The translations under genes and the position numbers were made by a program. Below the pieces are notes generated by a model that made no database searches, was not told the origin of the DNA, and worked only from the letters and a program-made list of their open reading frames with translations. From Lentisphaerae bacterium RIFOXYC12_FULL_60_16 (GTDB lineage Bacteria; Verrucomicrobiota; Kiritimatiellia; UBA8416; YA12-FULL-60-10), in assembly GCA_001803315.1 (NCBI GenBank), contig MHBQ01000059.1, positions 17,188 to 81,187 on the forward strand: a stretch of 64,000 bases of DNA, in the 5' to 3' direction. Of the stretch, positions 7,202 to 35,288 are shown piece after piece; the first letter of the stretch is position 1; every line of letters starts with the position of its first letter.

Positions 7202-7486
7202 TCACACCCGGGGCTGCAGGCCATCGGCCAGCACGGTTACCTTCGACCCGGTCACGTGAAGAAATCCGCCGGTGATAGCGCAAGCGGTTTTGTCCTTCCC
7301 GGTGGCTTGACGGACCACCAGGGGGCCCGGAGCGAGGATGGAAAGCAACGGCTCGTGCCGCGGCAGGATCTCGACCTCTCCGCCGGAAGTCCGTACCAGC
7401 AAGCTGGCGCAGCGCCCGGAGAAGATCGTCGCATCGGGACTCAATATGTCCAGGGCGAATGACTCGGATTCATCGGTGACTGCCAC
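7202..7486 (-). CDS. atpC: F1Fo ATP synthase epsilon subunit, beta-sandwich domain only (94 aa; C-terminal helical hairpin absent)
   Basis: The N-terminal domain is epsilon-like (LDILSPDATIFSG...VEILPRHEPLLS...GGFLHV) and the ORF stops after ~94 aa. No helical continuation is found in any frame downstream. Confidence 0.8.
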   Translation of the reverse strand: MAVTDESESFALDILSPDATIFSGRCASLLVRTSGGEVEILPRHEPLLSILAPGPLVVRQATGKDKTACAITGGFLHVTGSKVTVLADGLQPRV

Positions 7487-7519
7487 GGGTTTCTCCTTCT
7501 TTCACGGTTCCGCGGATCG

Positions 7520-8938
7520 TTACCCTTTTAAGCGTTCGGCCTTTTCCCTGACTTCCTCGATCTTACCGACGTAAAGGAACGCGGCCTCCGGCAGATCGTC
7601 GCACCGGCCTTCGACGATTTCCTCGAACGAAGATACCGTATCGGCGGTGGAGACATACTTGCCCGGCACGCCCGTGAACGCCTCGGCCACGATGAAGGGT
7701 TGCGAGAGGAAACGCTGGATCTTGCGGGCACGCGCCACGGCGAGTTTGTCCTCGTCCGACAGCTCGTCGATACCCAGGATGGCGATGATATCCTGCAGGT
7801 CCTTGTAGCGCTGCAGCGTCTCCTTGACCTGCGTCGCCACGCGGTAATGGCGGTCGCCGACCACGGCTGGATCCAGGATCCGGCTGGTGGACTCCAGGGG
7901 ATCCACGGCCGGATAGATCCCCAGACTGGCGATGTTCCGCGACAACGCGGTCACCGCATCCAGGTGCGCAAAGCAGGTGGCCGGAGCGGGGTCCGTGTAG
8001 TCGTCCGCCGGCACGTAGATGGCCTGGATCGAGGTGATGGAACCCTTCTTGGTGGAGGCAATGCGCTCCTGCAGGGCGCCCATCTCCGTTGCCAGGGTCG
8101 GCTGGTAGCCGACGGCGCTCGGGATCCGCCCGAGCAGGGCGGACACTTCGGACCCGGCCTGCACGAACCGGAAGATGTTATCAATGAAGAGCAGGACATC
8201 CCTGCCCTTGACGTCGCGGAAATACTCGGCCACCGTCATGGCGGACAGGGCCACCCGCAGACGGGCGCCCGGGGGCTCGTTCATCTGCCCGTAGATCAAG
8301 GCCGTCTTGTCCAGCACGCCGGCTTCCTGCATCTCGAGCCACAGGTCGTTTCCCTCGCGCGTCCGCTCCCCCACGCCGGCAACCACGGAACAGCCCGCAT
8401 GTTCGCGGGCAATCGAGGCGATGAGCTCCTTCATCACCACCGTCTTGCCCACGCCGGCGCCGCCGAACAGGCCGACCTTGCCGCCCTTGGGCAGCGGTTG
8501 CAGCAAGTCGATGACCTTGATGCCCGTCTCGAGGATTTCGCACACCGTTTCCTGCTCCGAAAATGCCGGGGCGTCCTTGTGAATCGAGTGATAGGCCTCG
8601 GCCTCCACGGGCCCGCGCTCGTCGATCGGTTCGCCCACGACGTTGAGAATCCTGCCCAGCGTGGCCTCGCCGACCGGCACCGAGATCGGCGCCCCAGTGT
8701 TCGTCACCGGCATGCCGCGCCGCAGTCCGTCCGTGCCGCTCATGGCAATGCCCCGCACGGTGTTTTCACCGAGATGCTGCGCCACTTCCACGACAACGTG
8801 GATGTCCCGTTCGGCCTCGTCAATCCGCAGGCAGGTGTAGATGTCCGGCAGGGCGTCTCCGTCAAACGCGACGTCGACGACCGGCCCGATGATCTGTTTC
8901 ACGCGTCCCACACCCGCCATTACCGTTTCCTGTGCCAT
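7520..8938 (-). CDS. atpD: F1 ATP synthase beta subunit
   Basis: Walker [16 protein letters not shown] motif, 472 aa. Confidence 0.95.
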
Positions 8939-9014
8939 GAATGCATCTCCTTTTCGAATTCCATTGTCCCCGGTTCCCCTTCTCCCGGGTTCCGGACTTC
9001 CCCGCCGGGCGCCG

Positions 9015-33200: not shown

Positions 33201-33344
33201 GTGCGATTTCCTCGATCGGGACGGGCCGGAACGATTCCTGAATCCACAGGATTTGGTTGTAATCCAACGGCTCGACCGGTTCGCTCCCGGTCTTGGGCCC
33301 CTGCGCTTCCTCGGTTTTTATCCCTTGTTCGCGTCTACTTTGCT
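33166..33344 (-). CDS. Small acidic hypothetical protein (59 aa) overlapping the metF start
   Basis: A consensus RBS GGAAGGAGGG lies 7 nt before ATG 33344. The ORF is in a different frame from metF. It sits between fhs and metF. Confidence 0.3.
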
Positions 33345-33470
33345 TACTCATGGGCGCCCTCCTTCCGGCGTGAACCGGAACGGTTCGTTTTATCGGCATT
33401 TCCGCTCGTTCATCGAATGCGCGTCTTCCGTGTTCTCCCGATCGACCGCGGCGGCGCCCCGGGCGCCCCG

Positions 33471-35288
33471 TCAATACAGGCCTTTCACCTCGCCGGTTTC
33501 GACGTCCACGTCAATGTTGCGAAACGCCGGATTCGAAGCCGTGCCGGGCATGAGCTTGATGGCGCCCGCCACGGGCACCAGAAAGCCGGCGCCCCGGTAA
33601 ATCAGGATATCGCTGATCGGCAGCGTCCACCCCGTTGGACGGCCCTTCAACTCCGGGTCGTGCGAAAGGCTCAAGTGGGTCTTGACCATGCACGTTCCCA
33701 GATTCCACGTCGTGGAGTCCTGCTCGTATTGTTTCAGTTTCTCCAGCGCCGTGTCGGAATAGACGACGCCCGCGGCGCCATAAACATCCTTCGCGATTCG
33801 CGCAATGCGCTCCCGCAGCGGCGTATCCAATTCGTACAGATGCCGAAACCGGCTCGGCTTCCCGCAGGCGGCCACCACGGCTTCGGCCAGTTCCACGGCG
33901 CCATCCCCCCCCTTGAGCCAATGCTTCGACAGGGCGCACAGGGCGCCGTTCCGTTCCGCCACGGTCCGGACCAGGCGGATCTCTTCCGCCGTGTCCGTGT
34001 GGAAATGATTGATGCATACAACGGGGGTGATTCCGCTTTTCTTCACCGTTTCGATGTGCGCAATCAGGTTCTGGCACCCCGCCTCCACCAAGGCGCAATT
34101 TTCCTTGGTATAGGCCTCATCCAACGCCAGGCCGGGTCGGACACGGGGACCGCCCCCGTGCATTTTGAGCGCGCGGATCGTCGCCACAATCACCACGGCA
34201 TTGGGCGTGAGCCCCGAGGCGCGGCATTTCAGGTTCCAGAATTTTTCGAAGCCGATGTCCGCGCCGAATCCGCTTTCGGTCACCAGGTAGTCGCCCAGCC
34301 GAATGCCCAGTTCGTCGGCAATGACGGAACTCTGCCCGATCGCGATGTTGGCGAACGGCCCGGCATGGACGAAAACCGGTTGCCCCTCGATCGTCTGGAG
34401 AAGGCTGGGATTCAGCGCCTTGACCATCCAGGCGGTCATGGCGCCGTCCACTTCCAGATCCTGCGTGGTGACCTCGCGTCCCGACCGGTCGTAGGCCACC
34501 ACGATGCGCGCGATCCGCTGCCGCAAGTCGCGAAGATCCTTGGCGACGGCCAGGATGGCCATGACTTCGCTGGAAACCGTGATCTGGAAGCCGGAATCCA
34601 TTTCGAATCCGTCCATCTTCCCGCCTTTGCCGATCGTGATGTTCCGCAAAGCCTGCGCGCAGAAATCCATCACCCACTTCATCTGGACGCGCGCGGGATC
34701 GATGTCGAGCCGCCGCATGTTGGTGCCGGCCAACCGCGCATCGTCATAATTCGCTTCATGCTGCATGCGCGCGGTCAGGGCCACCATGGCGAGATTGTGG
34801 GCGTTGGCGATGGCGTCGATATCGCCCGTCAGACCGAGCGAGAAATCCGTGAGCGGCAGGCACTGCGCCAATCCTCCTCCCGCAGCCGAGCCCTTGACGT
34901 TGAACGTTGGCCCGCCGCTGGGTTGACGGATCGCTCCCACCACCTTTTTCCCGATCTTTCCCAATCCCTGCACCAGGCCCATCGTCGTGGTGGTTTTCCC
35001 CTCGCCCAACGGTGTCGGGGTGATCGCAGTCACATCGATGTATTTTCCCATGGGCGCTCCACGCAGGCGCGACGACGCCTTGGTGAAGTTCACCTTGCCC
35101 ACGTACCGGCCCAGGGGAATCATTTCCTCATCAAGCAACCCCAATTCATCCGCCAGGGTCACGAACGGCTTCATATGGGCTTCCGCGGCCTTGGCAATCT
35201 GCCAGTCCTTCATATGCAAGGGATCGAGCACGCGGTTCCGGGCGCCAGGCGCGGTTTTGCAATCCGTCGGAGCAATCTCAACAGGCAT
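33471..35288 (-). CDS. fhs: Formate-tetrahydrofolate ligase
   Basis: The N-terminus is Fhs-like ([17 protein letters not shown]...) with the P-loop EGKTTTT and high conservation throughout. The start is 35288 (RBS GGAAAGGAAAG) or 35213. Confidence 0.9.

Follow-up and report, generated by a model that had tools for sequence, protein, structure and literature searches.

An F-type ATP synthase operon fused to the Wood-Ljungdahl gene cluster in an uncultured bacterium of the PVC group

The stretch of DNA analyzed here (the window; 64,000 nucleotides (nt), contig MHBQ01000059.1, positions 17,188 to 81,187 of the forward strand) belongs to Lentisphaerae bacterium RIFOXYC12_FULL_60_16 (assembly GCA_001803315.1). 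It harbors a Wood-Ljungdahl (acetyl-CoA pathway) gene cluster which is followed, on the same strand and 5 nt beyond its last gene, acsE, by a complete operon for an F-type ATP synthase. The arrangement is likely to represent a lineage-specific operon fusion, wherein a 12-gene atp operon was inserted behind acsE in the ancestor of two lineages and is probably expressed from Wood-Ljungdahl transcripts. The parts belong to well-known families, and it is their fusion into one array that is new. The array is real; it is an evolutionarily young rearrangement in a small group of uncultured groundwater bacteria and no conserved design.

Gene identities were assigned by scanning candidate ORFs of the minus strand against Pfam and NCBIfam and were checked against two public gene-call sets for identical contigs. 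The G+C content of the window is ∼65%, which results in many long spurious open reading frames (ORFs). The 26 co-directional minus-strand genes from fhs to atpC described in the original prediction were recovered by Pfam, NCBIfam and the independent public gene calls, and the span of ∼28 kb between the fhs start (35288) and the atpC end (7202) was found to be correct (Table 1). The 25 junctions comprise nine overlaps (six of them ATGA, −4), 11 gaps of 2–39 nt and five gaps of 54–119 nt; the description of the genes as mostly overlapping or separated by less than 40 nt thus holds for 20 of the 25. The distance of 5 nt between acsE and atpZ was also confirmed, the acsE stop codon being located at 16911–16913 and the atpZ ATG at 16905–16903. 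The cluster encodes the catalytic subunits AcsA and AcsB along with AcsC/AcsD, AcsE and RACo, and its gene set and local order (acsA-acsB-acsC-RACo-cooC-acsD-acsE) are those of the canonical acs cluster of acetogens and sulfate reducers. The methyl branch is represented by Fhs, a MetF-MetV fusion and a flanking formate dehydrogenase (FDH) module; no FolD/FchA domain was detected in the part of the window ORFs that was scanned, and the gene may sit elsewhere in the genome. The 3′ end of a small ORF of 61 amino acids (aa) overlaps the start of metF by 20 nt. Downstream of acsE, the genes for subunits a, c, b, delta, alpha, gamma, beta and epsilon follow atpI in the classical order of F-type operons, and the atpZ orthologues of relatives show similarly weak matches to PF09527. 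An ORF at 8920–9963 considered for the gamma subunit was dropped as it had no Pfam match, the right frame being 9015–9920. In its gene layout the array is operon-like: all genes point the same way, neighbors overlap or lie close together, and no intrinsic terminator is present within it.

The origin of the arrangement was evaluated by comparative synteny. An AcsE search of one genome per GTDB species yielded 21 related loci with 36–81% identity, onto which the window proteins were mapped by tblastn; the sequence past acsE extended for at least 6 kb in 13 of these loci and for 2–3 kb in two more. The block acsB-acsC-RACo-cooC-acsD-acsE was conserved in 21 of 21, and within the downstream sequence available none of the loci carried atp genes behind acsE. 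The block ends at acsE in every relative examined, whereas in the window a 9.7 kb atp operon follows on the same strand. In three loci (L017–L019), a convergent DUF3786 gene has its stop codon 3 nt past that of acsE. In another (L013), a single additional gene separates acsE from DUF3786, fdhD-cooT and the gene for the FDH catalytic subunit. The region past acsE is a variable boundary, and L013, L015 and L017 all differ. In the window, the same DUF3786-fdhD-cooT-FdhA block lies 19–20 nt beyond atpC.

Homologues of the 247-aa c subunit of the window (59–80% identity) were found in stand-alone operons with an identical 12-gene architecture. The five operons compared (L010, L011, L012, L040/L041 and L042/L043) share with the window the 12 genes, a 247-aa c, an 87–90-aa c, long b and b′ subunits and a 559-aa alpha. 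They differ in that each has its own upstream intergenic region of 115–990 nt and a different, unrelated upstream neighbor, mostly on the opposite strand; the window copy has no such region, and the acsE-atpZ junction is absent from all five. Upstream of one of these operons, a divergent cooC followed by a gene for a CooS-type carbon monoxide dehydrogenase (CODH; N-terminus ...TVWDRFADVQPQC) was observed (L042 1–1583, L043 197–1383), which constitutes a second, differently arranged proximity of CO-metabolism genes and this ATPase. The only other lineage with the junction is represented by L037–L039 (c subunit 92%, AcsE 85% and nucleotide identity 81–88%), where it is present at the homologous position as TAA CAGGG GTG. 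In a neighbor-joining tree of AcsE, the window and L037 were sisters, with L013–L016 and L017–L019 as successive outgroups. The public labels of close relatives (L013–L019, P0007–P0017) conflict, naming Lentisphaerae, Victivallales, Kiritimatiellia, Planctomycetota and Armatimonadota, and the placement of the lineage within the Planctomycetes-Verrucomicrobia-Chlamydiae (PVC) group is unsettled in the source records.

As acsE of the outgroups adjoins the DUF3786 block and the same operon stands alone elsewhere, the atp operon appears to have been inserted once, without its own upstream region. In the simplest history, the common ancestor of the two lineages received the whole operon in one insertion between acsE and DUF3786. 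In this ancestor of two uncultured PVC-group species, the complete operon atpZ-I-B-c3-c-b-b′-delta-alpha-gamma-beta-epsilon would have entered the few-nucleotide gap between acsE, at the end of the acetyl-CoA cluster, and the convergent DUF3786-fdhD-formate dehydrogenase block, leaving behind the upstream intergenic region present in its relatives. As an example of an entire 10 kb operon entering a gap only a few nucleotides wide between convergent genes, the case is clean and datable. Arrangements of the ancestral type are still present in relatives, some having acsE directly beside DUF3786 and others the same atp operon on its own. The original view of the arrangement as real and unusual is upheld by its absence from the 21 relatives and by the lack of atp genes in the Wood-Ljungdahl clusters of Acetobacterium woodii; synteny places it as a single recent insertion in two close lineages and does not support a conserved coupling of the pathway and the ATPase. 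No report of a Wood-Ljungdahl-atp linkage was found in the searched literature, which left out most subscription-journal papers.

Since 5 nt cannot hold a promoter and no upstream region was brought along, the atp genes are probably read through from upstream, and co-transcription from fhs to atpC is plausible from the sequence. The atp genes would most likely form the distal part of Wood-Ljungdahl transcripts initiated at the fhs promoter or at unrecognised promoters within the upstream coding sequence, with translation of atpZ starting just past the acsE stop codon. A relaxed sigma-70 scan of the minus strand (7202–35500), using a consensus that may not suit this phylum, whose promoters are uncharacterised, found no site in the array above 8/12 other than the one upstream of fhs; sites of 8/12 occurred at chance level (15 found vs. 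13.7 ± 4.2 in shuffles). Terminator-like matches across the array were at or below chance and all inside genes. Neither the junction, the end of the array nor any of the five longest gaps folded better than shuffled sequences (z −0.83 to +1.81) or contained T tracts, and Rfam showed no RNA family within the array. A perfect palindrome, ACCACAGTGTGGT (35407–35419), is located in the spacer of the fhs promoter candidate. Judging by position only, the divergent helix-turn-helix (HTH) gene may regulate this promoter, and the palindrome and the HTH gene (35396–35510 region) look like an operator-regulator pair. A G7/C7 hairpin is present at 35437–35455, just upstream of the promoter candidate; its role as a terminator of an upstream co-directional gene was ruled out, the neighboring gene being divergent.

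The foremost alternative, possible though rather unlikely, is that the two units are adjacent and transcriptionally independent, a promoter inside acsE or acsD driving the atp genes and the juxtaposition being a neutral by-product without coupling. It is in keeping with the movement of the atp operon as a unit, with neighbors that differ at every stand-alone copy, and with the variable boundary past acsE. In addition, the consensus scan fails to detect a promoter upstream of a stand-alone operon, and its silence in acsE is uninformative; in the relatives scanned, it detected one 9/12 site 120 nt before atpZ in L042 and none in L010 and L037. Against such independence, no site of at least 8/12 lies within acsE, the nearest weak one being 1.6 kb upstream in acsD. 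Synonymous-site conservation of acsE with respect to the sister lineage was 0.62–0.67 in the last 90 codons and 0.61 in the rest of the gene, showing no excess indicative of an embedded conserved element at the 3′ end in this comparison of two lineages only, which has low power. Moreover, there is no terminator-like signal before atpZ, so that upstream transcripts would enter the atp operon regardless.

Several points also weigh against the operon fusion being expressed by read-through. The scan finds no promoter upstream of the stand-alone L010 operon either, which makes a missing hit in acsE or acsD weak evidence. As a rule, an ATP synthase has to be expressed near-constitutively. To depend on the fhs promoter alone, which may be regulated, would be risky, and this favors the existence of extra internal promoters. 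A messenger of 28 kb is long, and processing or several overlapping transcripts are likely. As there was one evolutionary event, retention in two lineages says little on selection. The fusion is accordingly a gene-order variant with a single recent origin and plausibly a functional operon fusion. No sign of selection for the acs-atp linkage was found, and the fusion may be adaptive or neutral. If atp expression does depend on Wood-Ljungdahl transcription, the main energy converter would be tied to one carbon and energy pathway, providing a natural experiment in operon fusion and in the expression budgeting of energy-limited anaerobes.

A more far-reaching proposal is that the ATPase is a dedicated partner of the pathway: without a promoter of its own, it would be made solely when transcription of a regulated Wood-Ljungdahl operon reaches the far end, with a rotor in which the c subunit of six helices has one site and with an epsilon lacking the inhibitory C-terminal domain. 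This is considered doubtful. If true, the enzyme could draw on the small Na+ gradient of acetogenesis for ATP synthesis, or run in reverse to energise ferredoxin reduction for CODH, and the 28 kb array would be a self-contained, transferable acetogenesis-plus-bioenergetics module. Still broader, and very improbable, is a conserved and selected super-operon that hard-wires carbon fixation to energy conservation across Wood-Ljungdahl lineages. The tight junction kept over ∼15–19% nucleotide divergence, and the cooC-cooS pair beside the atp operon of a second lineage, though divergent, would fit such a design. The neighborhood is, however, not a conserved one, being absent from the 21 related acsE loci and the five same-type stand-alone atp operons and having a single origin; linkage of this kind has not been reported in the searched literature, and the Wood-Ljungdahl clusters of model acetogens are devoid of atp genes (PMC6925170), the pathway in A. 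woodii being encoded in three clusters, none of which contains them.

That the junction is an assembly chimera of two unrelated contigs, a generic risk of metagenome assemblies, is a negligible prospect and can be excluded on the basis of independent contigs and the sister lineage: the identical AcsE protein is encoded by at least 12 contigs that differ in sample and assembler (JGI, Logan, NCBI with GCA_001803285.1, and ENA with, among others, a scaffold of 153 kb), the nine loci fetched from these contigs all carry the same atp genes 5 nt past acsE, and the homologous junction occurs in three contigs of the diverged sister lineage (L037–L039) from other sequencing runs. Public runs whose assemblies contain the junction include SRR3989315, SRR11600247, ERR5010703 and ERR5010617. 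A scan of metagenome contigs with subunit a recovered only the contig of the window itself and two spurious fragments.

By its gene content, the ATPase appears to be an exaggerated version of the hybrid rotor of A. woodii, and in this respect a more unusual item than the array. One operon encodes both a multi-hairpin c subunit with lost carboxylates and a single-hairpin c subunit with a complete site. In the 247-aa c subunit, only hairpin 3 retains the ion-binding Glu (ESTxxY), its place being taken by Ser in hairpin 1 and by Gln in hairpin 2. This Ser/Gln/Glu pattern was nearly invariant in 20 homologues, which indicates that it is maintained by selection. The AlphaFold model of the protein (predicted local distance difference test, pLDDT, 92; predicted template modeling score, pTM, 0.88) showed six long helices. 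The best solved match in both sequence and fold was 4BEM_J, the two-hairpin c1 subunit of A. woodii, which covers two of the three hairpins; no solved structure spans all three. Alignment of the 90-aa c subunit to 1YCE and 4BEM revealed Glu at the Q32 position followed by V-S-E-S-T-G-I-Y. The Na+-binding motif is complete, with E, V, E, S, T and Y at Q/E32, V63, E65, S66, T67 and Y70 (1YCE alignment; Ilyobacter tartaricus/Fusobacterium nucleatum numbering), which suggests a Na+-coupled enzyme. The two-carboxylate Na+ site and the definition of the motif have been described for F. nucleatum (PMC3692424). The c-ring of that organism (PDB 3ZK1), with which the 90-aa c shares Glu at the position of Glu32, Val63, Glu65, Ser66, Thr67 and Tyr70, is a homomeric c11 ring, whereas the window also encodes the six-helix c and its ion specificity is predicted only.

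A. woodii (PDB 4BEM; PMC9171764, PMC6925170) is likewise an acetyl-CoA pathway organism whose F-type operon carries a multi-hairpin c with lost sites beside a single-hairpin c with the Na+ motif. It differs in that its Wood-Ljungdahl clusters and atp genes are separate and joined here; its large c has two hairpins and that of the window three; it retains Glu in the first hairpin and has Gln in the last, whereas the large c of the window has Glu in the last; and the small c of the window has Glu, not Gln, at position 32. N-ATPases (atpDCQRBEFAG) are F-type relatives and often Na+-coupled. In contrast to these, the order in the window is the classical I-B-E-F-H-A-G-D-C and a delta subunit is present; identity as an N-ATPase was rejected on the grounds of this delta (PF00213), the classical order and an AtpR match that is a trace only (E 0.099).

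Larger c subunits were found in Desulfobacterota Fo operons (atpZ/I-B-c-c-b-b′), with four hairpins (325 aa, mostly E-Q-Q-E) or five (∼403 aa), each beside a normal 82–84-aa c (L044 and L045). The L044 Fo operon is divergent from, and ∼4 kb away from, two NIR_SIR-domain genes (dsrAB-like by Pfam) and dsrD. A six-helix, one-site c would lower the ion-to-ATP ratio of F-type enzymes further than the A. woodii hybrid rotor, as would the four- and five-hairpin versions. In the literature searched, with the same gap in subscription journals, no description of F-type c subunits having three to five hairpins was found, and this multi-hairpin family may deserve more attention than the array.

Other subunits also depart from the usual pattern. 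Alpha has a 50-aa insertion (residues 317–366), and b and b′ carry N-terminal extensions of ∼185 and ∼140 aa, respectively, which seem, by eye, to contain a further hydrophobic stretch that may span the membrane. Subunit a is ∼100 aa longer than usual (330 aa vs. 222–224 aa in L044 and L045), with an N-terminus that looks signal-like by eye. Epsilon consists of the N-terminal beta-sandwich only, without the C-terminal helices, the epsilon of L011 being a two-domain protein of 146 aa. Such embellishments are common to the stand-alone operons of relatives and are, therefore, not linked to the fusion.

Table 1. Positions of the features in the window, and of two multi-hairpin c genes in related loci (L044, L045).
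Feature	Position	Strand	Basis
Convergent formate dehydrogenase module: NuoF/GltD-like, FdhA (molybdopterin type, 1987-4746), FdhD-CooT fusion	1..6285	+	domain scan
DUF3786 gene, convergent; adjoins acsE in outgroup genomes, marks insertion site	6534..7181	+	domain scan and synteny
F1 subunit epsilon (atpC), 94 aa, last array gene	7202..7486	-	PF02823 only
F1 subunit beta, 472 aa	7520..8938	-	domain scan
F1 subunit gamma, 301 aa	9015..9920	-	PF00231, E 6e-86
F1 subunit alpha, 559 aa	9960..11639	-	Pfam/NCBIfam scans
F1 subunit delta/OSCP (oligomycin sensitivity-conferring protein), 185 aa	11654..12211	-	PF00213
Fo subunit b′, 295 aa	12204..13091	-	PF00430, residues 143-264 only
Fo subunit b, 334 aa	13088..14092	-	PF00430, residues 188-313 only
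Single-hairpin c subunit, 90 aa	14116..14388	-	alignment to 1YCE and 4BEM
Three-hairpin (six-helix) c subunit, 247 aa	14443..15186	-	three ATP-synt_C stretches
atpB, Fo subunit a, 330 aa	15189..16181	-	PF00119
atpI-like protein, 140 aa	16178..16600	-	position; PF03899 trace only, E 0.094
atpZ-like small membrane protein, 102 aa, heads atp operon	16597..16905	-	PF09527 sub-threshold, E 0.0028; position
acsE-atpZ junction, 5 nt (TAG CCGGA ATG)	16906..16910	-	sequence
acsE, methyl-tetrahydrofolate (THF):corrinoid methyltransferase, 268 aa, last Wood-Ljungdahl gene	16911..17717	-	PF00809; NF005719, 257 bits vs. cut-off 259
acsD, corrinoid Fe-S protein small subunit, 321 aa	17752..18717	-	PF03599
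Second CooC/AcsF-type ATPase (cooC/acsF), 257 aa	18714..19487	-	domain scan and gene calls
RACo, reductive activator of corrinoid protein, 639 aa	19520..21439	-	PF14574, PF17651, PF17650
acsC, corrinoid Fe-S protein large subunit, 446 aa	21436..22776	-	PF03599 and PF04060
acsB, acetyl-CoA synthase, 725 aa	22854..25031	-	PF19436, PF03598, PF18537
HoxU/NuoG-N-terminal-like 2Fe-2S/4Fe-4S protein, 275 aa	25016..25843	-	Pfam/NCBIfam scans
NuoE-NuoF fusion flavoprotein, C-terminal 2x[4Fe-4S] domain, 777 aa	25855..28188	-	TIGR01959, 458 bits
CooF/HydN-like 4Fe-4S ferredoxin, 171 aa	28192..28707	-	Pfam/NCBIfam scans
acsA, Ni-CODH subunit, 679 aa	28763..30802	-	PF03063, E 1.6e-164
cooC, CooC-type Ni-insertion ATPase, 272 aa	30805..31623	-	PF01656
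Methylene-THF reductase with MetV-like C-terminal domain (metF-metV fusion), 521 aa	31620..33185	-	PF02219 and PF12225
61-aa ORF between fhs and metF, GGAGG ribosome-binding site, no family match	33166..33351	-	called independently in two public assemblies
fhs, formate-tetrahydrofolate ligase, 605 aa, first array gene	33471..35288	-	PF01268, E 4.8e-227; gene call
Sole strong sigma-70-like promoter candidate for the array, TGGACA-17-TATATT, ∼100 nt upstream of fhs	35396..35424	-	10/12
Divergent XRE-type HTH gene, 166 aa, candidate regulator of the fhs promoter	35510..36010	+	gene call; weak HTH_31/HTH_3 matches
Four-hairpin c, Desulfatibacillum aliphaticivorans (cultured)	L044 10001-10978
Five-hairpin c, Desulfobacterota	L045 10001-11212

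The Wood-Ljungdahl cluster itself contains unusual fusions and inserts, namely, the MetF-MetV-like protein, NuoE-NuoF fused to a ferredoxin domain, and the HoxU-like and CooF-like proteins located between acsA and acsB. These fusions and Fe-S proteins (25016–28707, 31620–33185) could be an electron-bifurcating or NADH-linked module. CooT is a nickel-binding accessory protein of CODH. In the convergent FDH module, the gene at 5128–6285 (+) encodes FdhD with a C-terminal CooT domain, one protein spanning the maturation functions for FDH and CODH. Next to the Wood-Ljungdahl/FDH region, a molybdenum/tungsten cofactor (Moco) riboswitch was detected by Rfam (37939–38102, +; 60 bits) upstream of moeA, past which are located genes for a molybdate transporter, moaC and mogA/MOSC-like genes. 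Farther along, 44429–52801 (+) harbors a VitK2_biosynth-family gene, a nucleosidase-UbiA fusion, a flavoprotein gene and a gene for a radical-SAM protein whose C-terminal domain is of the CofH/MqnC type, a set resembling, by its Pfam matches only, futalosine-type menaquinone biosynthesis. The region 54001–58000, with polyprenyl synthase, YceI-like and porin-like genes, has a G+C fraction of 0.53–0.54 vs. ∼0.65 elsewhere and may be foreign DNA.

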